A stretch of 64,000 nt of DNA, taken from positions 1 to 64,000 of the IMG/VR virus record IMGVR_UViG_2881684137_000004; one strand, given 5' to 3'. This DNA comes from a virus (Duplodnaviria > Heunggongvirae > Uroviricota > Caudoviricetes). Below the pieces are notes generated by a model. It saw nothing but the letters and a program-made list of their open reading frames with translations. It had not been told where the DNA came from and searched no databases. Positions 12,064 to 62,155 of the stretch are shown piece by piece (positions within the stretch are counted from its first letter, which is position 1; every line of letters starts with the position of its first letter). A program made the position numbers and the translations under genes.

Positions 12064-12831
12064 TTATGTATTTTGATTATCACCAATTATTTCCACTATA
12101 TATTGCGCCTTTTTGTTTTTTATAGTTGAAATAAGTATTTCGCTAACACCATATTCTTTTGCAAGCTTCACATTGCTGATTCCTGAAAGGGATTTTCTAT
12201 AAACTGCTAAAACTTGCTCGTCGTTTAATTTTCTCAATCTTTGTCTACCATCGTTTTTCAGCCTTTGATCTTTTAACATTTGTATATGTTCTTTTGTAAC
12301 CATTGACTCAAATACAGGAATAAGATGTTTCCAGTTGCTTTTATTCCTCACTCTTTTTGCTGAGCCAGGCTTCATATTGAATTTCTTCACTATGTATTTA
12401 ACACTTCTGTCGTGCAACCAAATATCTAAAACATCATCATCAGTCAAAATTGCATTCCCATTATTCTCTCCAGTTTGCACACCTTCAAATGCTCCGGTTT
12501 CCGATGCGTGTTTCATATTATAGCTTTGATCGCACCATTCCAAATTTGCATAGTGATTGTTTGTTTTATTTCTGTCTATATGATTTACAACATCATATTT
12601 ATCTGGATCTGGATTATGAACAAACAGTTTAGCAACTAATCTGTGGATTTTATACTGCTTGTTAGACAGGTTAACGATTTCATACTCATGTATTTTCAAT
12701 TGATTTTTAAGAACTCTGCCTGTACTATTATTCTTCGCTCTACCAAAATTACTTACACTGTATGTATGACCAAATTTATTAGGCAGAACACTGATTTCAG
12801 CAACATCTTTCCAAATTTCTTCTTCAATCAC
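12064..12831 (-). CDS. HNH homing endonuclease (NUMOD4/HNH_3 with C-terminal helix-turn-helix), free-standing downstream of nrdF
   Basis: HRLVAKLFVHNPDPDKYDVVNHIDRNKTNNHYANLEW motif. Start overlaps the nrdF stop. Confidence 0.8.
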   Translation of the reverse strand: MIEEEIWKDVAEISVLPNKFGHTYSVSNFGRAKNNSTGRVLKNQLKIHEYEIVNLSNKQYKIHRLVAKLFVHNPDPDKYDVVNHIDRNKTNNHYANLEWCDQSYNMKHASETGAFEGVQTGENNGNAILTDDDVLDIWLHDRSVKYIVKKFNMKPGSAKRVRNKSNWKHLIPVFESMVTKEHIQMLKDQRLKNDGRQRLRKLNDEQVLAVYRKSLSGISNVKLAKEYGVSEILISTIKNKKAQYIVEIIGDNQNT

Positions 12832-24888: not shown

Positions 24889-25344
24889 TCATTTTCCTTC
24901 CAATTTGTAAAGGGTAACTTCATAATCTTCGAATACCTCAGCTATTATACCCTTTACTACATTCCAATCAGCTCCACCTCGATCAGAACCAATTTTATAA
25001 GGAAGTGCTACTGAATAATTATGTCTTTTAGCAAAAAATTTGAGATCCGTTAACGTTGCTTTTAAAGCAGACAGATCGGTGAATTGCTTTCCATAACCAT
25101 AACCATCTTGAGCAAAGAGATTTGCAACAATTTTGGAGTAATTGTCCACTGCTGTGAACTGACATTTTCCCAGTATTTTTGGAGAGTGCATCTCTATAAA
25201 AGCTTTATATGTAACAAGCAAATCACTATACTTGTCACTAAGCTGTTTAGCAACACCGGAACCCATTACACCCTTACAGTTTACTTGATGGCCAATAATA
25301 TCTTCAGTTGCCTGTAATAAATCACCTTCTATAAGTTTTATCAA
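24889..25344 (-). CDS. macro domain protein (ADP-ribose binding / ADP-ribosyl hydrolase family)
   Basis: IEGDLL...HQVNCKGVMGSGVA matches the macrodomain G-D-I...N...GGGV motif pattern (cf. YmdB/MacroD). Confidence 0.75.
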   Translation of the reverse strand: MIKLIEGDLLQATEDIIGHQVNCKGVMGSGVAKQLSDKYSDLLVTYKAFIEMHSPKILGKCQFTAVDNYSKIVANLFAQDGYGYGKQFTDLSALKATLTDLKFFAKRHNYSVALPYKIGSDRGGADWNVVKGIIAEVFEDYEVTLYKLEGK

Positions 25345-27658: not shown

Positions 27659-29479
27659 CTATGCAGCAGCAATACTTTCAACAATATATTTGTACAAGTT
27701 TTTCGGTTTTTCATGCTTGAACCTAATTAAGTCCAATGCGTCTACAACTCTTTTTAGGTTCATCAGTATAAACTTGTAATCTTCGATATCGAGTTCTGTA
27801 CTTAATTCATTCCTTAGTTTACATTTTTCGATGATAATTCGATCTAAATATGCCTTATTATTCATTGCATCATAATACACAACACTATCTTCTACCTCTT
27901 CTGTGATTATTCCCAAAGCATCCACTTCTGTCTGTCTGATTACCATTACATCACCGATTGAAAATACATTGTGTTCAAACCCTACGATTCTGCTAATCAT
28001 TTCAAGAATCATCATAGCTCGCTCTTCCTGTGTGGATAAGCTAGTATTTGAAACACATCCTTTGAGCTTCACTTTTTCATTTAAGTTTGAAATATGTATT
28101 ATATTCTTATCTTTAGAAAGTAATTTTAGAATTCGGTCTTCTACTTTATTGTCAGAAACAACTATTTTCATTTTGTAATGTATGGCTATTTTTATTTTCT
28201 TTTCTTGTTCCAGTACTTCGTTGAAGTTGAACCAGAAGATTGTCTCATCATCGAAAAGTTCTGATCCCTGTTTAATATAAATATCATCTGAATCTAGTTC
28301 AAACCTTTCTATGTAACCAAGAGTACCACTACTTCCACTATAATGTCGCACACCACGAGCTTCTGGTGCTTTGTTTTCAATATCTGCTTGCATTTCCACA
28401 TTATCAAAATGTCCTACCGATTGTCGTACTGCTTCTTGTTTTAAAAATACATTATATTGATTTAAAGTTGTGATGTCTGGATTATCTAATTTGTCTAATG
28501 CGATTCCTAATAAGTATTTTTTTTGCTCCTTTTGTTCTGTATCAAGAACATTGAAAGCTATCTTATCTTTTACAGAATTTTCATCGATATGATTATTGAT
28601 TGCATCAATGTATGTTTCGATGTCAGATGCTTGTCCATTTAAAAAACTATCTTCTGTCAATTCACTTGCGTATTTTTTAATCAAACTTATAAATGAGTAA
28701 TATTTATCATCTCGAATAATATCTTTTCTATCTGGAGCTGTTAAATTTAGTGCTCTATCTGTTATGTGCAAATCACCTTTCAAATAGTAGAAGCTGTCTA
28801 ACTTTGTAATAAATCTTCCTTTATAAAATAACTTAAGTTCTTGACTGAAATTAGTCAAAGCTATCCAGCCTTTGAACAACTCGTTATCTTCAATGACTTT
28901 TAAAAAAGTACTATTGTCTCCTTCAGTTAAATCCTTTTTTATTTGCAGCTCCCCATTATAATAGATATCTAGTTCATGAATGTATCTACCCAACAATTCG
29001 ACTCTTTCTCTTATGGAGTATGAAGGGAATTGAGAAAAATCAAAATGATTAAGTATGAGTTTAAAACCTTTACGCTCTTCATTTTTTTCATTTACTATGA
29101 TTTCAGTATTATTTGTTCTAATCATATTCTCAACATCGAATACAATATGTTTTTTGCCGCTGTATACTTCTATGTAGTTGCTAACTGTAATGTTACTAAA
29201 GAAACCCATTCCAAAAGGAGACTCTTGTTTTTGTACATCCTCATCCCACTCTGACTCCGCAATTGAAAACAATGCTTGCGGATTGTTTAATATTGCTCCG
29301 TCATTTTCAATTATTACTCTATTATTTAATGTGTCTGTTGTCACGTACACCTTAGAAGCTTTGGCTCTCTGAGCGTTTTGAACAGTCTCGTCTAAAAATG
29401 ATAGTTTATCCTTAAATGTGCTTTGTCTTAGAAGTTTTAACTGGTTAATAACATTTACTTTCACTTCAACATTGCTCAT
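27659..29479 (-). CDS. GHKL-superfamily ATPase (Hsp90/MORC/MutL-like Bergerat fold), 606 aa
   Basis: N box ETVQNAQRA, G1 box IENDGAI, G2 box SPFGMGFFS in the N-terminal ~110 aa. Long C-terminal region of unknown fold. Confidence 0.65.
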   Translation of the reverse strand: MSNVEVKVNVINQLKLLRQSTFKDKLSFLDETVQNAQRAKASKVYVTTDTLNNRVIIENDGAILNNPQALFSIAESEWDEDVQKQESPFGMGFFSNITVSNYIEVYSGKKHIVFDVENMIRTNNTEIIVNEKNEERKGFKLILNHFDFSQFPSYSIRERVELLGRYIHELDIYYNGELQIKKDLTEGDNSTFLKVIEDNELFKGWIALTNFSQELKLFYKGRFITKLDSFYYLKGDLHITDRALNLTAPDRKDIIRDDKYYSFISLIKKYASELTEDSFLNGQASDIETYIDAINNHIDENSVKDKIAFNVLDTEQKEQKKYLLGIALDKLDNPDITTLNQYNVFLKQEAVRQSVGHFDNVEMQADIENKAPEARGVRHYSGSSGTLGYIERFELDSDDIYIKQGSELFDDETIFWFNFNEVLEQEKKIKIAIHYKMKIVVSDNKVEDRILKLLSKDKNIIHISNLNEKVKLKGCVSNTSLSTQEERAMMILEMISRIVGFEHNVFSIGDVMVIRQTEVDALGIITEEVEDSVVYYDAMNNKAYLDRIIIEKCKLRNELSTELDIEDYKFILMNLKRVVDALDLIRFKHEKPKNLYKYIVESIAAA

Positions 29480-41921: not shown

Positions 41922-42587
41922 CTAGGAAATCGCATGATTCGACATGCTGGAACTTTTTAATAGAGATTGAAAGCCTCTCAGAATCATTTGGGGAATAATC
42001 CGACTCTCTGAGAATCCATAAAATCCACATGAAAACAAGCAGTGTATTTCAATAAGGAACGTTCCTTCGATATCGTTTAAGCCAACATCAATCGTATAAG
42101 CAGCTGGAGAGTAGGTATAATTTCGAATCATTTTATTTATAAGGTTGATATCAGGCATTTTAGTGAAGTCTCCAGAATAATTCTGAATTCCCACCAATTT
42201 TCCATTGTGTACAAAACCTCTCCATTCAGATTCAATATTCATAATCCTGGATACTATGTATTCTCCTTCAGGAATATGTTCTCTTTTTGACCCATGGATA
42301 ATTCCAGTGTAACCCTTTACCTTATTATTACTTTTTACGAACACATCTTCTTTCGGGAAATATTCACTATGCTTTTCTAATAATATAGGCATCCTTTTTA
42401 GATATTCAAAACTCCATAATTCTGCTGGAATGTTAATTGGTTTTATTTCGCTATGAATGTCATGATAATTAGACAAATATTTTCTAATAAACTCTATTGT
42501 CCCTGAAGGCGTATAGTTTGAATAATCATGCTCAAACATATCGTGCTTAACTTGGCCATTGATTGTTTGAATAAGAAAGTCTGCCAT
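41922..42587 (-). CDS. ATP-grasp-like domain protein
   Basis: SEWRGFVHNGKLVG (E-[YW]-R-x-F-V motif) and C-terminal IDVGLNDIEGTFLIEIH (D...E-x-[NH] metal-binding loop). Confidence 0.55.
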   Translation of the reverse strand: MADFLIQTINGQVKHDMFEHDYSNYTPSGTIEFIRKYLSNYHDIHSEIKPINIPAELWSFEYLKRMPILLEKHSEYFPKEDVFVKSNNKVKGYTGIIHGSKREHIPEGEYIVSRIMNIESEWRGFVHNGKLVGIQNYSGDFTKMPDINLINKMIRNYTYSPAAYTIDVGLNDIEGTFLIEIHCLFSCGFYGFSESRIIPQMILRGFQSLLKSSSMSNHAIS

Positions 42588-43882: not shown

Positions 43883-44110
43883 TTAAAACTCTGCATCATC
43901 ATTTGGGGGATGATCGAGAATCATTAAGCCATAATACCCTACAACTCTCCACTCGGAATGAGCCTCGATTAGAAATATACTTTCAACATTGTTTACACCA
44001 GCATCCAATGTGTATTCTGGGAACGCATTACTGTAGGCCTTAATCATCTGCTCTATAAGTGACAAGTCAGGCATTTTACTGAAACCTCCAGAATTTTTTT
44101 GAATTTCCAC
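43883..44110 (-). pseudogene. truncated paralog (C-terminal fragment) of the ATP-grasp-like gene 41922..42587
   Basis: QKNSGGFSKMPDLSLIEQMIKAYSNAFPEYTLDAGVNNVESIFLIEAH aligns with QNYSGDFTKMPDINLINKMIRNYTYSPAAYTIDVGLNDIEGTFLIEIH. GTG start immediately after an in-frame stop. Confidence 0.45.
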
Positions 44111-48303: not shown

Positions 48304-49068
48304 CTAGTATGCAAGAATCTTATGCATATTAATATCAATCAACATCTTATTGACTTTTTCATAATCTGGTGTTTTAGGCAGATCAGATTTTTCATATGCT
48401 GTTTTTAAATGGTTATCATATTCTTCAATCATCTTCAGAGCTTCATCAAAAGTAAACTTTCCATCTCTACAATTCAACAGTAATTCTCTGTTTCCTCTAT
48501 ATGTGCAAAAGGTACCTGTCTCAAGTATTTCAATCGCACTTGTGAGCAGTCTAACAGCATGAGAAAAGAATTTAGTGTCGTAGCCATGCTTTTCTATCAA
48601 ATCTTGTCTTCCAGTACCATTAGAATTTTTCACTTTAATCTTTTGAATTTGAGAATGTGCATAGCCTCCAAATTTGTGTTTAATTGCTTTAGACAAAAAC
48701 AAATGACGATTATTAATTAGTTGATGCCCAATAAAAGTTAATTTCATATAGTCTTGTGGTCTTAAGAATAGAATCTCAATGTTATTTGGAACCCCTGACA
48801 TTGCATCCTTTACAAATTTATTAATATGTATGATATTAACATCTGTGTCGTCCTTAGTGTTTCTAAAATTTTTACCGCCGCTGCTATTGTACTCATTAAA
48901 CGAGTTTAATCCTAGATAGTATTCAACTGGTGGAATGCAAACACCTTTATAATCTCGATCTGAGTCTTTGGTGTTTGTCCCGTATGCATAACTCCCAGTA
49001 GGCGCAAGAATAATTGTACGCTCTTCTAGCCAACCTGGAGCATCTGAATTAAGGCATAATTTATTCAT
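48304..49068 (-). CDS. nucleotidyltransferase, Pol-beta superfamily (minimal NTase fold)
   Basis: LAPTGSYAYGTNTKDSDRDYKGVC fits the hG[GS]x9-13[DE]h[DE]h NTase signature. A downstream D could complete the triad. Confidence 0.6.
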   Translation of the reverse strand: MNKLCLNSDAPGWLEERTIILAPTGSYAYGTNTKDSDRDYKGVCIPPVEYYLGLNSFNEYNSSGGKNFRNTKDDTDVNIIHINKFVKDAMSGVPNNIEILFLRPQDYMKLTFIGHQLINNRHLFLSKAIKHKFGGYAHSQIQKIKVKNSNGTGRQDLIEKHGYDTKFFSHAVRLLTSAIEILETGTFCTYRGNRELLLNCRDGKFTFDEALKMIEEYDNHLKTAYEKSDLPKTPDYEKVNKMLIDINMHKILAY

Positions 49069-49300: not shown

Positions 49301-49648
49301 TCAACCTCCACTTACTATTTCAAAACTTACCGAAGACCTCTTTCCGTTCCAAAAATTAAAATCGTATTTAAAAGTTTTATTAAACAATAACACCGTCATT
49401 TCAAAGTAATGCTCGTGTTCAAAAACATCGATTATCTCACCGATCACTTTAGAATCACTGCTAGTCCTGTCTGAAACAAGTATATTTAGATAATCGTTCT
49501 TATTTCCGAATTTAATTGCTTTAAATTTTACTGTCATTTCTTCTGAGCAGCTATCTCCTGTAAGATCAATTGCTGATATATCATCGTAAATTCCCAATTC
49601 ACTTCGCATATCTTCGAGTGTTTTAATGCGCTCTTCTCGGGTAGTCAT
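49301..49648 (-). CDS. hypothetical protein
   Basis: ORF. Confidence 0.5.
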   Translation of the reverse strand: MTTREERIKTLEDMRSELGIYDDISAIDLTGDSCSEEMTVKFKAIKFGNKNDYLNILVSDRTSSDSKVIGEIIDVFEHEHYFEMTVLLFNKTFKYDFNFWNGKRSSVSFEIVSGG

Positions 49649-49777
49649 TAATTCACCTCACTTTTCAAAAACCTTTTCGCAAATTTTAATTGTTGCTCAA
49701 TATACCATTTATCGATGTCACTTTGATCCTGGAGCCATCAACCATATGAAATTATACATCTTCAAAACAAACCCTCC

Positions 49778-50326
49778 TTATTTCTGCAAATAGAAATATT
49801 CTTTTTCTCCTGTTTCAGTGCATGTCCTGTGCATTCTCTTTCCTTCCACATCAAAATAAATACTAAACTTTGATGACTCTGGAGGAGGAATGATTCTCCA
49901 CTTATCCGCGAACTCTTCCCATACATAAGAAACTCTTTCATTGTTTTCCCTGTTGTGTTTGATAATGTACTCAATTCTTTCAAAATTGTCATTATCAGTG
50001 CTAAAGCGTGTGCTACTGAACGGAAGAAAATCACAAGAATCAAGATCTGGCTCAGGAAAAATTAATAGTAAATCATCAGTACCAACTACAACAGGAATTT
50101 TTTCATACCATTTTATAACATCACTCATGAGCTTTTTCTTTGCTGTATTATTCTGCCTGTGTAATTCTCTGCGTTCTGGAGTAAATAAATTTCCTAGCCA
50201 GGATTCATCTTCAAATGGTTGATCTAGAATGACTTTAAACGACTTCACTCTATTCAATATCGTTTGTTCTCTGGTTTCTAGTGACATTTTTATTTTCCCC
50301 TCTTCACCACTATTATCATAAATCAT
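49778..50326 (-). CDS. hypothetical protein
   Basis: 182-aa ORF; start may be the internal MSLETREQ. Confidence 0.5.
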   Translation of the reverse strand: MIYDNSGEEGKIKMSLETREQTILNRVKSFKVILDQPFEDESWLGNLFTPERRELHRQNNTAKKKLMSDVIKWYEKIPVVVGTDDLLLIFPEPDLDSCDFLPFSSTRFSTDNDNFERIEYIIKHNRENNERVSYVWEEFADKWRIIPPPESSKFSIYFDVEGKRMHRTCTETGEKEYFYLQK

Positions 50327-50327
50327 C

Positions 50328-50552
50328 CTATTTCATATTTTCTCGTTGCTCAATGTATCCCTTAAAATATTCCCATTGTGCATCAAGTTCATCGATATTT
50401 CTTTTGATATAGCTTTCGGCAACAGAATCATCTACTAGCCCTTGGACAGACAATTGATACATTAGTTCAATCTTAGAGACCATTTCAAAAAACTCTTTTG
50501 CATATCCTTTAGCATAGTTCAGCCTATATTGATTAAGTCCATGTTTATTCAT
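50328..50552 (-). CDS. hypothetical protein
   Basis: ORF. Confidence 0.5.
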   Translation of the reverse strand: MNKHGLNQYRLNYAKGYAKEFFEMVSKIELMYQLSVQGLVDDSVAESYIKRNIDELDAQWEYFKGYIEQRENMK

Positions 50553-50554
50553 TC

Positions 50555-50989
50555 CTACCGCCTCTTTCCATCAGTTAATATATACATAGCAGCCCCATAT
50601 TTTTTCATCCGTTCCTTGTCTTTTACTGTGAATTCGATAAGCCTGGACACATCCATATTATCTTCAATATCCAATATCTTAATTTTAGTCGCCAATTCAT
50701 TTGTTTTTACTCTATAAATAAATTCATCGTATTTCTCACTCTTCCTTCTTGTGAGACAGTCAATAGCATCAACAACTTTATTAGAAAACAGATTTAGGCT
50801 TTGCAAATACTCCAGGGTGATTTCGGTATCCTCTACGATGTCATGAAGCAAAGCTACAATTCTCTCCTCTTCTGTTTCACATTTTAGCATTAAACGGAGA
50901 GGATGTAATATGTATGGATTCCCACCTTTATCATATTGTCCATCATGCATTCCTGTCGCTAATGTAATCGCCTTTGTCAATTGACTCAT
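50555..50989 (-). CDS. HD-domain (p)ppGpp/alarmone hydrolase-like protein (RelA/SpoT hydrolase-domain family, small alarmone hydrolase type)
   Basis: GMHDGQ...HPLRL...LLHDIVEDT matches the HD hydrolase motifs of SpoT/Mesh1-type enzymes. 144 aa. Confidence 0.7.
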   Translation of the reverse strand: MSQLTKAITLATGMHDGQYDKGGNPYILHPLRLMLKCETEEERIVALLHDIVEDTEITLEYLQSLNLFSNKVVDAIDCLTRRKSEKYDEFIYRVKTNELATKIKILDIEDNMDVSRLIEFTVKDKERMKKYGAAMYILTDGKRR

Positions 50990-51007
50990 CTTCTCAACTC
51001 CGTTAAT

Positions 51008-51340
51008 TTATTCTTTTGAAAGAGAGTTTTCATCGTTATTATCCCAAAACTCTTTGTAATACTTCTCACTAAAATTCTCTTTAGCAATCTTCTTTAATTC
51101 AGTAAGTTTGTTAATCATATCATCAATGTCACACATATGAATATAGTGACAATTTTCACCTTTTTCTTTTGAGTCCTCGTCATCTGGTGAGTAGCCATTA
51201 TAATAGCTCCATAAATTAATACAGCCATCCCATCTGATTGACACTTCGGTATTATTGTATTCTGAGCCAACCAAAGTCATGGAAACGACTTCATTTTTGC
51301 CAGAATGATTTTCTCTATATACCTTTCTAATATCCCACAT
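51008..51340 (-). CDS. hypothetical protein
   Basis: ORF. Confidence 0.5.
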   Translation of the reverse strand: MWDIRKVYRENHSGKNEVVSMTLVGSEYNNTEVSIRWDGCINLWSYYNGYSPDDEDSKEKGENCHYIHMCDIDDMINKLTELKKIAKENFSEKYYKEFWDNNDENSLSKE

Positions 51341-51379
51341 ATTCTACTCATCCTCCTCAAATGAAACTGAGATTTAATT

Positions 51380-51643
51380 TTATGATTTGGCTAGTGGTAT
51401 AAATTTAAAATATTCAGAGCCGAATTGATTTCTTAATTGTTCCAATCGGATAAAGCCATCGCTAATTGCTTCAATTTGAATCATACCAAAGTAGGCGTCC
51501 AGGAATCTGCCGTTGAATGAATTTCCTTCTTTGTTGATAATTAAAAATTCCAGAGAATCATATCCATGATCCTTTGCATATTCTTCAATCTCATAAATGT
51601 TCATGGCTTCTAAGTTCATATTTATTGCCTCCTTATGTAACAT
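51380..51643 (-). CDS. hypothetical protein
   Basis: ORF. Confidence 0.5.
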   Translation of the reverse strand: MLHKEAINMNLEAMNIYEIEEYAKDHGYDSLEFLIINKEGNSFNGRFLDAYFGMIQIEAISDGFIRLEQLRNQFGSEYFKFIPLAKS

Positions 51644-51682
51644 GAAAAGATTATTTTATAAGATGCAATATAGGTTTTTATT

Positions 51683-51934
51683 TTATGGTCGAGATTTATC
51701 TCTTTCAACCATATACCATTCATTATTGTGATTGTGTTCATGTTGAAGATATATTTTATTTGCGGTCTCTAGCATAAACTTGGCAACGATCTCATCGAGC
51801 AACCTGTAGCTTCCTTCTCTTAAATTATCTCGTTCCCAAGTTAAGGCTCGTAATTTATCTAGCGCTTCTGCCTCATCTGGAGAACCATATTTATTAATAA
51901 TATGCATACATTTCTGAAGATCTTTAATTATCAC
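51683..51934 (-). CDS. hypothetical protein
   Basis: ORF. Confidence 0.5.
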   Translation of the reverse strand: MIIKDLQKCMHIINKYGSPDEAEALDKLRALTWERDNLREGSYRLLDEIVAKFMLETANKIYLQHEHNHNNEWYMVERDKSRP

Positions 51935-51977
51935 AACTAATCACTCCTTTCTGATTCTATGAAACACTCGTTTCATG

Positions 51978-52697
51978 CTAAGTTAAACGGCGCTTATACA
52001 TTTCTCTGAGCATCTTTAATTGTCTCATATTTTGATCATAATTAAGCCATTCCCTAGAAATTTCAACATGTGTAGGCCATTTGAAGTATTTTATTAATTG
52101 AGGAAATCGTTTGAAGTATTTAATATCATACACAGAGTAGAATGCCAAAGACGCAAATACAAATGCAGGCGATTTAATTTGATAACTCTTTATTCCATCG
52201 GTTTTTAAAAATCTCACAAAAGATTTAGCTGACACAGAATCTCCAAAAATAAATCTCACATCTGTTCTATTGTTTTTTATAAGATATTCATGTGTTTTTA
52301 TCACAGCATCAATGGCTTGATAAGAAAAAAATGTGGAACGACTTTTGAATGGAAGAAGGGAAAGTTGTTTGAGCCCATCTTTTTCTTGTAAATGAATCGC
52401 TACGGCCTTTTGCACAGTAAAAGAGTTAAACAAGTCTTCTTCTCCAAAACAACCAAGGTCATTAACTATTACTTTTTTTCTCTTAAAGAATTTATATGTT
52501 TGCAATGAGACAATCAAGACAAAGATAATTGTTGGACAAAGTAGTAAATAAAGGAATGACATACTGAAAATATAGTCGAATCCATAAATCAAAACATTCA
52601 CAAAAATCAAGCTAGCCACGCAGATTAAGAGTGGATCAGCAAATCTCATTGTTAGCATGTATGAAGGTCTTTCGAATGCGCTTTTTATGTAGCTCAT
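51978..52697 (-). CDS. membrane protein (2-3 N-terminal TM helices plus a cytoplasmic domain)
   Basis: ORF. Confidence 0.5.
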   Translation of the reverse strand: MSYIKSAFERPSYMLTMRFADPLLICVASLIFVNVLIYGFDYIFSMSFLYLLLCPTIIFVLIVSLQTYKFFKRKKVIVNDLGCFGEEDLFNSFTVQKAVAIHLQEKDGLKQLSLLPFKSRSTFFSYQAIDAVIKTHEYLIKNNRTDVRFIFGDSVSAKSFVRFLKTDGIKSYQIKSPAFVFASLAFYSVYDIKYFKRFPQLIKYFKWPTHVEISREWLNYDQNMRQLKMLREMYKRRLT

Positions 52698-60844: not shown

Positions 60845-61285
60845 TCAAAGCGCATGCGCATATTTAAACCAATATTCCCAATTATCAGCCATCTCAGCAA
60901 GCACATGACCATGACAAGCTGCTGGACTGCAGTAACAGCATAATACTTTACCCTTCAAGTCTTTTAAGTTAAGCAGCAAATCCTTTTGATTCACTATCCA
61001 TTTCTTAAAACACTCAATTGCTTCCTCTCTTGTGCCTACTTTGAATTCCGCTTTTGTGTTTTTCATATGAGAAAATGGATTGCCCCACATCGATCCACGT
61101 CCAATGTAAATATCATAGGGAACCTTATGATCTTTGTTGACCACTGTTGTTTTTATTGGTTCTAGGTGATTCTGCAATGCCCATTCTAACTGCTGTGACT
61201 TGGTTTGGTATTCAACTCTGCTGTTTTTAATATCTTGGATTACATTTCGAATATCTTTGCCACTTTTAACTATAGAAGATGTCAT
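60845..61285 (-). CDS. DUF4326-like domain protein
   Basis: C-terminal YDIYIGRGSMWGNPF...CCYCSPAACHGHVL resembles the DUF4326 signature. Confidence 0.5.
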   Translation of the reverse strand: MTSSIVKSGKDIRNVIQDIKNSRVEYQTKSQQLEWALQNHLEPIKTTVVNKDHKVPYDIYIGRGSMWGNPFSHMKNTKAEFKVGTREEAIECFKKWIVNQKDLLLNLKDLKGKVLCCYCSPAACHGHVLAEMADNWEYWFKYAHAL

Positions 61286-61322: not shown

Positions 61323-61679
61323 TTATTTATAAGTAATCACCCTTATTTTCAATCCATATTTCTTTGCAATGTCATACATATGCTTACTTCCTTTACTTTC
61401 ACCGTCCCAAAATAATGCTAGGGCATCTCCTTCTTCAGCCATCTCTACATTTCTAATATATCCAGCCTTTTTTCCTAGTTCATCCCATTTGGCAGGATGA
61501 GAAGATATTACATACCCCTTCTCTAAAGCGTATCGTTCACCAAGTTTATCAGCCCCTCTTGCTGCACCTGATATGATACAAATCTCATCATTAATATTTT
61601 GAAGCAGTTTATCGAGTGACGAGCATACTAGGTCATAATCATTAAAATCACGAGAACCAGCAACTATTAATTTAAACAT
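61323..61679 (-). CDS. DUF2493 / SLOG (YspA-like) domain protein
   Basis: MFKLIVAGSRDF...ICIISGAARGADKLGERYA matches the Rossmann-like SLOG motif pattern. Start placed after the upstream gene's stop. Confidence 0.5.
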   Translation of the reverse strand: MFKLIVAGSRDFNDYDLVCSSLDKLLQNINDEICIISGAARGADKLGERYALEKGYVISSHPAKWDELGKKAGYIRNVEMAEEGDALALFWDGESKGSKHMYDIAKKYGLKIRVITYK

Positions 61680-61714
61680 TTTATTTGAACCATTCCTCCC
61701 AAGATGAGAATATA

Positions 61715-62155
61715 CTATTTGAAATGCGGTAGTGATACCGCCCAATCATAGAGTCGCTTATTAGAACTCAAAACAAATTCAAATTTACTCAAATTATCGG
61801 AATCATTATAGTTGTTTCTAATTGTATTTCCTGCATAATAGGTGCGTTTAGAGTTAATTGTATCCACATCATACTTAAAACCTTGTGGAAGAACTCTGAA
61901 TTTTTCCACTTCTCCTTCAAACATTATATAAGCATTTGGTGGATGATCACTATACCAATGACCACTGCAACAATATTTTGTTGCATATCCCTTCTGATTC
62001 AACAGTATAATTGTAGGAGCGATTAATTCGTCTATTTGCACGACATCCCCATGGCAGGAGTGTTTTGGACAATCACACTTACGTTTATTCTTAGCATTGG
62101 AAAGATTTAAAAATGAACTGTCATAAATCTCATAACAAGTTAAACAAATATACAC
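61715..62155 (-). CDS. hypothetical zinc-binding protein
   Basis: CLTC...CDCPKHSCHG motif. Confidence 0.5.
   Translation of the reverse strand: MYICLTCYEIYDSSFLNLSNAKNKRKCDCPKHSCHGDVVQIDELIAPTIILLNQKGYATKYCCSGHWYSDHPPNAYIMFEGEVEKFRVLPQGFKYDVDTINSKRTYYAGNTIRNNYNDSDNLSKFEFVLSSNKRLYDWAVSLPHFK
62104..62140. repeat. direct repeat copy 1 (5' end of gene 61715..62155), partner at 62580-62615
   Basis: TTAAAAATGAACTG..AAATCTC.TAACA shared by both copies (~27/32 identical). Confidence 0.6.

Follow-up and report, generated by a model that had tools for sequence, protein, structure and literature searches.

The closest described relative of the gene considered here is Aph1 (BACCAC_01146), which is encoded by a Bacteroides caccae prophage and whose structure is available (PDB 7SMG; Ahmad et al., PNAS 2023, PMC10083569). 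Aph1 is a compact eight-helix HD protein that forms a tetramer and is active with Mg2+ or Mn2+ (Ahmad et al., PMC10083569). Hydrolysis of (p)ppGpp by Aph1 is undetectable, and some activity of this kind is gained only in the D24R+R119A double mutant; the same study set a six-residue (p)ppApp signature, which consists of D24, R96, D116, R119, K133, and Y134 in Aph1 numbering (PMC10083569). Two of the 12 Aph homologues assayed have modest (p)ppGpp activity. In prophages of Streptococcus pneumoniae, Mannheimia, and Pasteurella, apk2-iapK-aph1 modules are found (Bartoli et al. 2023; PMC12226406), and the Aph1 proteins are interchangeable, providing a "universal" immunity that cross-protects against non-cognate Apk toxins.

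Related hydrolases are also encoded by phages as stand-alone genes. The stand-alone SAH of Salmonella phage PVP-SE1 ("PbcSpo") neutralized the toxSAS toxins CapRel, PhRel, PhRel2, FaRel, and FaRel2, and the SAH of phage SSU5 ("PaSpo") likewise neutralized all five (Jimmy et al., PNAS 2020, PMC7229694). It was proposed in that work that incoming phages bypass alarmone-based abortive infection by means of such hydrolases (PMC7229694), and the SSU5 SAH is in routine use for detoxifying CapRel, PhRel2, and FaRel2. The faRel operon of Cellulomonas marina encodes an SAH antitoxin (type IV), ATfaRel, for which degradation of (p)ppGpp as well as ppApp is reported. In addition, ATfaRel, which is likewise a PbcSpo SAH, restored aminoacylation after FaRel2 had pyrophosphorylated the CCA end of tRNA (Kurata et al.). 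Published work already covers the Aph family (2023), the presence of its members in phages, and the proposal that stand-alone phage SAHs serve in counter-defense (2020); in the literature searched, we found no demonstration of a phage SAH or Aph countering defense in a real infection.

Here we describe a gene, aph, that lies in a 64,000-nucleotide (64-kb) stretch of phage DNA, which we call the window. The window has a GC content of 33.9% and is read almost wholly on the minus strand. It carries a large serine recombinase at positions 1-2700, and also encodes a 1301-aa DNA polymerase III α, the large and small subunits of RNR, NrdI, ThyA, DHFR, and a MazG-like protein, together with a RecJ-like exonuclease, DnaB, a primase, a helicase, and YolD with a Y-family polymerase. 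Along its whole length, the DNA polymerase III α shares 57% identity with YorL of SPβ, phi3T, and SPR. On sequence grounds, the source is an SPβ-like prophage of a Paenibacillaceae host; the prophage is probably about 130 kb long, of which 64 kb is covered here. A megablast search of the 48-54 kb region against 50,697 phage records gave zero matches, so the phage is without a close sequenced relative at the DNA level.

The same phage has further orphan homologues of enzymatic antitoxins. An orphan DarG-type macrodomain matches the PADLOC DarG model (1.1e-17) and DarG macrodomain structures in the PDB, and a DarT1-associated NADAR domain is also present. Separately, an RlaP-type nucleotidyltransferase is encoded in the window near aph.

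Table 1. Features at the aph locus, in window coordinates.
Feature	Position	Strand	Basis
aph gene, 144-aa predicted Aph1-family adenosine 3'-pyrophosphohydrolase ((p)ppApp hydrolase)	50555..50989	-	ORF, residues, PDB 7smg, AlphaFold2 model, Foldseek
Shine-Dalgarno GGAG, 8 nt 5' of the aph ATG	50998..51001	-	read from sequence
74-aa ORF downstream of aph, unknown function, PHROG 8350	50328..50552	-	ORF list, profile search
110-aa ORF upstream of aph, unknown function, same operon	51008..51340	-	ORF list

According to the ORF listing, aph is a minus-strand frame of 144 codons with an ATG start, and it sits in a long same-strand early/replication operon. The stop codon of the upstream gene is at 51008-51010, which leaves a spacer of 18 nt to aph, and the 74-aa downstream ORF of the same operon begins only 2 nt past the aph stop codon. 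A scan of 47-56 kb found no terminator on the minus strand. Because of these short gaps and the absence of a terminator-like site in that region, aph is taken to be a single cistron within a long operon of closely spaced genes. Promoter-like sites in the same region number 40, versus 42 expected from shuffled sequences.

The neighbors of aph themselves offer few clues. Searches of PHROGs and Pfam with the flanking small ORFs (49301-50552 and 51008-52697) gave nothing informative beyond PHROG 8350, and no PADLOC model fits the Aph protein or its immediate neighbors. The downstream ORF has no BLAST similarity to IapK, and its adjacency to aph is not kept in a related prophage (L001, see below). 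On a viral contig (L092), a homologue of the upstream ORF (52% identity) precedes the aph homologue by about 1.1 kb. The GC content of aph is 35.9%, versus a phage average of 34.0 ± 2.7%, and both its GC and its GC3 are within about 1.3 SD of the other phage genes; a recent capture of aph from the host was rejected on this basis.

A search of PDB sequences with the Aph protein gives 7smg, the "(p)ppApp hydrolase" Aph1, as the best match to a solved structure (E 8e-38, full length, 47% identity), whereas the HD domains of Rel/SpoT proteins match at E 1e-9 or weaker and Mesh1 at about 1e-3. In addition, PHROG 990 ("metal-dependent phosphohydrolase") matches at E 7.5e-49, and 1130 database homologues are found at E <= 1e-10. 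Generic RelA/SpoT models, in contrast, under-call the protein: Pfam HD_4 scores 20.6 bits, under its gathering cut-off of 27.2, and TIGR00691 (spoT_relA) matches only through profile positions 1-85 of 687, with 55.5 bits against a cut-off of 499. The first-pass annotation had reported a 144-aa ORF with HD...HP...LLHD(I/V)VED motifs. Its coordinates are correct, and a residue check by script recovers every motif (HD at 15-16, HP at 29-30, and LLHDIVED at 47-54), together with a second ED(N) at 109-111. In the HMM check that it proposed, HD_4 stays below threshold and TIGR00691 matches only in its N-terminal part.

Taken as a whole, we have high confidence that the window gene is a member of the Aph1 family, as regards both family and enzyme, on the strength of these matches and the residues described below. 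An identical protein is present in NCBI on a 467-kb contig under the name "GTP pyrophosphokinase [Paenibacillaceae bacterium]". The 144-aa protein lacks the long RelA/SpoT/Rel architecture (HD plus synthetase plus TGS/ACT), and since it is hydrolase-only, the name is a misnomer. This is of practical use for annotation, as is the failure of HD_4 to reach its gathering threshold with this protein.

For comparison at the residue level, we used a MAFFT alignment of 121 sequences, in which the query and Aph1 stand beside 119 database homologues. The metal ligands of the Aph protein are H29, H49, D50, and D107, and the catalytic residues are the E53-D54 dyad and N111. Aph1 has the same residue at each of these seven positions, which vary little or not at all in the alignment. 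The specificity signature is also complete, with all six residues (D20, R93, D113, R116, K130, and Y131) identical to those of Aph1 and likewise conserved among the homologues. In particular, the equivalents of Aph1 D24 and R119 are kept as wild type (D20 and R116). Moreover, the guanine-binding R43/R44/S45 of Thermus thermophilus Rel correspond to D20/K21/G22 in the query, which resembles the D24/K25/A26 of Aph1.

These residues bear on the alternative that the protein is a SpoT/Mesh1-like (p)ppGpp hydrolase that collapses the host stringent response. The HD fold and the catalytic residues are indeed common with (p)ppGpp hydrolases, and both the dual activity reported for ATfaRel and the modest ppGpp activity of 2/12 Aph homologues show a precedent within related enzymes. 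However, both D24 and R119 had to be mutated before Aph1 hydrolyzed ppGpp, wild-type Aph1 is without detectable (p)ppGpp activity, the full Aph signature is found here, and the guanine-binding residues of Rel are replaced by D/K/G. We therefore consider this alternative very unlikely. By its signature, the Aph protein almost certainly hydrolyzes (p)ppApp with little or no (p)ppGpp activity, although, since the specificity is deduced in this way, it may still turn over a little (p)ppGpp.

The structural comparison points in the same direction. An AlphaFold2 model of the Aph protein, built from a 63-sequence alignment, has a pLDDT of 96.1 and a pTM of 0.89. When this model is compared with the PDB using Foldseek, the four chains of 7smg come on top (TM 0.88-0.93, RMSD 1.0-1.5 Å, 47-48% identity); on 7smg_A, the TM score is 0.93 when normalized by the query and 0.94 when normalized by the target, with an RMSD of 1.0 Å over 139 columns. 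Mesh1, PaSAH, RelH, SpoT, and Rel rank below 7smg, with TM 0.6-0.77 and an RMSD of about 3 Å or more. Among them, the Mesh1, PaSAH, and RelH matches have TM 0.72-0.77 and RMSD 2.9-4.0 Å, and these targets are about 30 residues longer. The model is a compact single-domain fold of 144 aa and lacks the additional helix that other SAHs have at the C-terminus. This large gap between Aph1 and the Mesh1/Rel/SpoT structures is a further argument against a (p)ppGpp hydrolase.

More generally, the Mesh1, PaSAH, RelH, and SpoT/Rel HD domains belong to the same superfamily as the Aph protein, and have in common with it the H..HD..ED..D..N constellation and metal dependence. They differ from it in that they are mostly 17-25% identical and have extra helices (nine or more), and in that the guanine-binding Arg is missing in the query; the long RSH proteins have, besides, additional synthetase and regulatory domains. 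The first-pass annotation had assigned the gene to the SpoT/Mesh1-type (p)ppGpp hydrolases. A stand-alone phage HD hydrolase of the RelA/SpoT-homologue superfamily remains of this assignment, but the subtype gives way to Aph1, which fits far better in both the sequence search (8e-38 versus 1e-9 to 1e-3) and the structure (TM 0.93 versus 0.6-0.77). The ED and metal-binding residues that the assignment called for are present on the alignment (H29, H49, D50, E53, D54, and D107). Of the two roles that were suggested together with it, the dismantling of the host stringent response is unlikely in view of the signature and the replaced guanine-binding residues, whereas the degradation of (p)ppApp made by toxic small alarmone synthetases is the reading that the Aph1 match and the signature favor.

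To see in what contexts such genes occur, we collected the relatives of aph. By tblastn, homologues are found in 464 phage records, all with less than 60% identity, and their contexts fall into two classes. In the first, represented by pneumococcal prophages such as IPP46, the gene order is portal, MuF (Apk2), the 69-aa IapK, and then the HD protein. In the second, represented by large phages such as PVP-SE1, the aph homologue stands alone. An Apk2 domain is directly upstream in 24-25 of the 80 best IMG/VR relatives, where the distinction between solo and toxin-linked copies is made by BLAST with a single pneumococcal Apk2 reference, which divergent synthetases may escape, as could be the case around the B. 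caccae Aph1-like sequences. The eight closest viral relatives (50-56% identity), several of which are on 135-167-kb contigs, have no Apk2 directly upstream, and Pfam searches found no synthetase among the sampled neighbors in six of the eight (L092-L097). Among the host genera of the 464 phage matches, Bacillus is outside the ten commonest (at most nine records), while there are at least 12 SPβ-type records, so most of these are probably without aph.

The nearest relatives in bacterial genomes are all from Paenibacillaceae. One homologue (L001, 75% identity) is in a related SPβ-like Paenibacillus prophage, which has DnaB, the primase, and Gp157 in common with the present phage, although the immediate neighbors of aph differ. 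Another Paenibacillaceae relative is on a 212-kb phage-like contig, and some are in ordinary non-prophage chromosomal neighborhoods, such as rplS-lepB-rnhB...sucCD. In a neighbor-joining tree without bootstrap, which is indicative only, the toxin-linked copies group together, and the query groups with the Paenibacillaceae and the stand-alone viral copies.

These contexts allow the described systems to be compared with the present locus. The Aph protein resembles Aph1 in its 47% identity, its helical HD fold of about 145 aa, its metal and catalytic residues, and its complete signature; however, Aph1 directly follows a MuF-Apk2 toxin and a Tis1-like immunity gene, whereas the window gene is stand-alone in an early/replication region. 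Similarly, the Aph protein is 45% identical to the Aph1 encoded by pneumococcal phage IPP46, whose signature differs only by K at the R93 position, but the IPP46 gene belongs to a three-gene toxin-immunity cassette beside the portal. There is no such cassette in the window, and the query is outside that tree cluster.

It is conceivable that aph neutralizes a (p)ppApp synthetase of the phage itself, in the manner of apk2-iapK-aph1, with the toxin gene outside the 64-kb window. Immunity of this kind is the role of the founding Aph1 and of its counterparts in pneumococcal, Mannheimia, and Pasteurella prophages, the IPP46 gene order and the Apk2 domains directly upstream in part of the viral relatives provide a pattern for it, and the structural module of the prophage lies beyond the 64 kb covered. 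On the other hand, characterized aph1 genes always come directly after apk2-iapK in the head-morphogenesis module, and not in an early/replication region as here; the toxin-linked tree cluster, as stated, does not include the query. We searched for such partners directly. Among the window ORFs, over the whole 64 kb and with unannotated ORFs pooled, no RelA_SpoT synthetase and no Phage_Mu_F Pfam domains are found, and MuF-Apk2 and IapK of IPP46 have no BLAST match in the window, where BLAST is insensitive for small divergent IapK/Tis1-like proteins. Likewise, no RelA_SpoT, MuF, or IapK-like sequence is found within ±10 kb of the aph homologue in L001. We regard immunity to a toxin of the phage itself as improbable. 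Note that "Serglycin" Pfam matches obtained in the ORF search are artefacts of the GS linkers used in pooling and were discarded.

Among stand-alone genes, that of PVP-SE1 is the natural comparison. Its gp220 is the sole homologue in that genome (41% identity, E 2e-31, 5/6 signature residues) and for this reason is presumably the SAH used in the toxSAS experiments. Both genes are stand-alone phage genes, and an RlaP-type nucleotidyltransferase and a macrodomain protein are common to PVP-SE1 and the window. The differences are that PVP-SE1 is a lytic myovirus of Enterobacteria, whereas the phage here is temperate, SPβ-like, and from a Firmicute host, and that gp220 has 169 aa, an N-terminal extension, and G at the R93 position. 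ATfaRel is comparable as an RSH-family hydrolase that destroys the product of a toxin, taking the 3'-pyrophosphate off ppApp and tRNA-CCA; unlike aph, it is encoded beside its toxin, and ppGpp degradation is reported for it. For the present gene, the family membership, the intact active site and signature, the fold, and the stand-alone context are established here.

The substrate of the enzyme, the timing of its expression, and its role in counter-defense are what we infer, as follows. In the SPβ-like temperate phage and its Paenibacillaceae host, aph would be co-transcribed with genes of the early/replication region. Its product would be an all-helical HD metalloenzyme that holds Mg2+ or Mn2+ on H29, H49-D50, and D107 and uses E53-D54 as the catalytic dyad. 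It would take the 3'-pyrophosphate off pppApp, ppApp, and pApp to give ATP, ADP, and AMP, respectively, and (p)ppGpp would be hydrolyzed little or not at all. By analogy with ATfaRel, a further substrate may be tRNA 3'-pyrophosphorylated at A76 by CapRel, PhRel2, or FaRel2. Since (p)ppApp and tRNA modified in this way are both adenosine 3'-pyrophosphates, an adenine-specific enzyme could in principle counter both toxSAS classes without touching (p)ppGpp.

The proposed role of the enzyme is to undo the adenosine 3'-pyrophosphorylation that toxic RelA/SpoT-homologue synthetases impose on an infected cell. Candidate opponents are the toxSAS that make (pp)pApp (FaRel type), MuF-Apk2 toxins from rival phages, and secreted toxins of the Apk1 type. 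The outcome would be that ATP pools and purine synthesis (PurF) are restored and phage replication proceeds. The co-resident orphan DarG-type macrodomain and NADAR domain fit a set of enzymatic antitoxins and in this way give the locus a counter-defense theme. We lean, by a little, towards this complete explanation, namely a stand-alone Aph1-family hydrolase that includes a counter-defense role.

The same chemistry could also serve the metabolism of the host cell or the conversion of the lysogen. In this case, the phage copy would supplement a host Aph, clear endogenous (p)ppApp (e.g., from SasA-type enzymes or under stress), and, by lifting the inhibition of PurF and the sequestration of ATP, supply phage DNA synthesis; another option is that it would shield the lysogen from the (p)ppApp toxins of competing bacteria. 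Because some Paenibacillaceae chromosomes have their own Aph homologue, the phage copy may merely boost a host housekeeping activity. Genes for nucleotide metabolism abound in the window (RNR, NrdI, ThyA, DHFR, and the MazG-like protein), close homologues are found in ordinary Paenibacillaceae chromosomal contexts, and the GC content of aph, being near that of the phage, suggests a long-resident gene. Furthermore, ppApp is a product of Bacillus subtilis SasA, and the T6SS toxin Tas1 is among the toxins that Aph1 protects against (PMC10083569). However, endogenous ppApp is reported to be non-growth-inhibitory, and the orphan DarG-type macrodomain and the NADAR domain point to counter-defense instead. 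The position of aph in a replication operon without a recognizable promoter or terminator of its own also speaks, if weakly, against expression in the lysogen. On balance, we consider a metabolic or lysogen role rather unlikely.

The counter-defense explanation can be extended, tentatively, to an arsenal of orphan enzymatic antitoxins in which Aph would act against toxSAS, the DarG-type macrodomain against DarT2, and the NADAR domain against DarT1. Acting on (p)ppApp and on tRNA-A76, Aph would then be a universal antidote to both toxSAS classes that spares (p)ppGpp signaling, and it might cooperate with the RlaP-type nucleotidyltransferase in tRNA-end repair. This extension is a possibility to be kept in mind, to which we attach limited credence.

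The novelty of the present gene is that it adds a member to the Aph family, in an SPβ-like Paenibacillaceae prophage lineage without a close sequenced relative. Escape from toxSAS by means of phage alarmone hydrolases, which was proposed in 2020, is backed by co-expression assays, and a tractable SPβ-type phage that carries aph together with the orphan DarG-type macrodomain and NADAR could suit a test of counter-defense at the level of infection. If its function is as we infer, the known range of stand-alone Aph-type hydrolases would grow to include temperate SPβ-like phages of Firmicutes, and there would be a further case of a phage copy with close kin among the aph genes on chromosomes of the host family.

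Table. Further features of the prophage window, and one chromosomal homologue of the hydrolase gene (window coordinates unless a locus is named)
Feature	Position	Strand	Basis or setting
Large serine recombinase, 899 aa	1-2700	-	PHROG 95 integrase, 1.9e-98
HNH/NUMOD4 homing-endonuclease-like gene	12064-12831	-	
DarG-type macrodomain, 151 aa, stand-alone	24889-25344	-	PADLOC DarG, PDB
606-aa ORF	27659-29479	-	Mid replication module; primase/DnaB genes on one side, small ORFs on the other
R2K-clade ATP-grasp protein	41922-42587	-	Pfam R2K_2, 6e-24
75-aa ORF	43883-44110	-	By-eye resemblance to C-terminal part of R2K-clade ATP-grasp protein
NADAR-DarT1 protein, 204 aa	44178-44792	-	Pfam
RlaP-type nucleotidyltransferase, Pol-β family, RNA-repair-associated	48304-49068	-	PHROG 388, Pfam RlaP
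DUF4326 gene and neighbouring YAcAr/YpsA-like SLOG-domain gene	60845-61285 and 61323-61745	- (both)	
Aph homologue, 64% identical	L088 6001-6420		Candidatus Pristimantibacillus chromosome

The window opens with the stop codon of the recombinase gene and thus begins at the edge of this gene, much as SprA lies at the end of SPβ. The homing-endonuclease-like gene is inserted between the MazG-like and RNR small-subunit genes, with a 4-nt overlap at the start of the RNR gene. Salmonella phage PVP-SE1, which carries an Aph homologue, has HNH genes of a similar kind.

The stand-alone macrodomain matches PADLOC DarG (1.1e-17) across the N-terminal macro region, its PDB matches are the DarG macrodomains 5m3i/5m31, and PVP-SE1 encodes a homologue (gp232, 'Tk.4-like'). 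We regard it as a candidate anti-DarT counter-defence gene that would reverse ADP-ribosylation. The NADAR protein is a further orphan antitoxin-like enzyme: it exceeds the gathering score of Pfam NADAR-DarT1 ('DarT1-associated NADAR antitoxin'; E 3e-7), no toxin gene was detected next to it, and a PDB sequence search gave no match.

The RlaP-type gene, 1.5 kb downstream of aph, matches PHROG 388 at 2e-74 and Pfam RlaP at 4e-17, and has a possible tie to tRNA-end repair; PVP-SE1 again encodes a homologue (gp166, 36% identity). The SLOG protein matches PADLOC PsyrA weakly (3e-5), and the aph homologue of two viral loci, L093 and L094, has a YpsA SLOG gene directly upstream.

The 75-aa ORF, placed 1.3 kb downstream, may be a truncated duplicate of the R2K ATP-grasp gene: by eye it is similar to the C-terminal portion of the ATP-grasp protein (…FSKMPDLSLIEQMIKAY… vs …FTKMPDINLINKMIRNY…). 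PHROG and Pfam searches with the 606-aa ORF gave no match.

For the protein identical to the aph product (50555-50989) and for many Paenibacillus homologues, NCBI uses the name 'GTP pyrophosphokinase', and JGI calls the same proteins '(p)ppGpp synthase/HD superfamily hydrolase'. Both names are misleading, since proteins of this kind, 140 aa long, lack a synthetase domain. The Candidatus Pristimantibacillus homologue lies in an ordinary chromosomal, non-prophage neighbourhood (rplS, lepB, GTPase, rnhB, UPF0102 ... sucCD); a chromosomal Aph is therefore present in some Paenibacillaceae, a hint that members of the family turn over (p)ppApp as part of their physiology.
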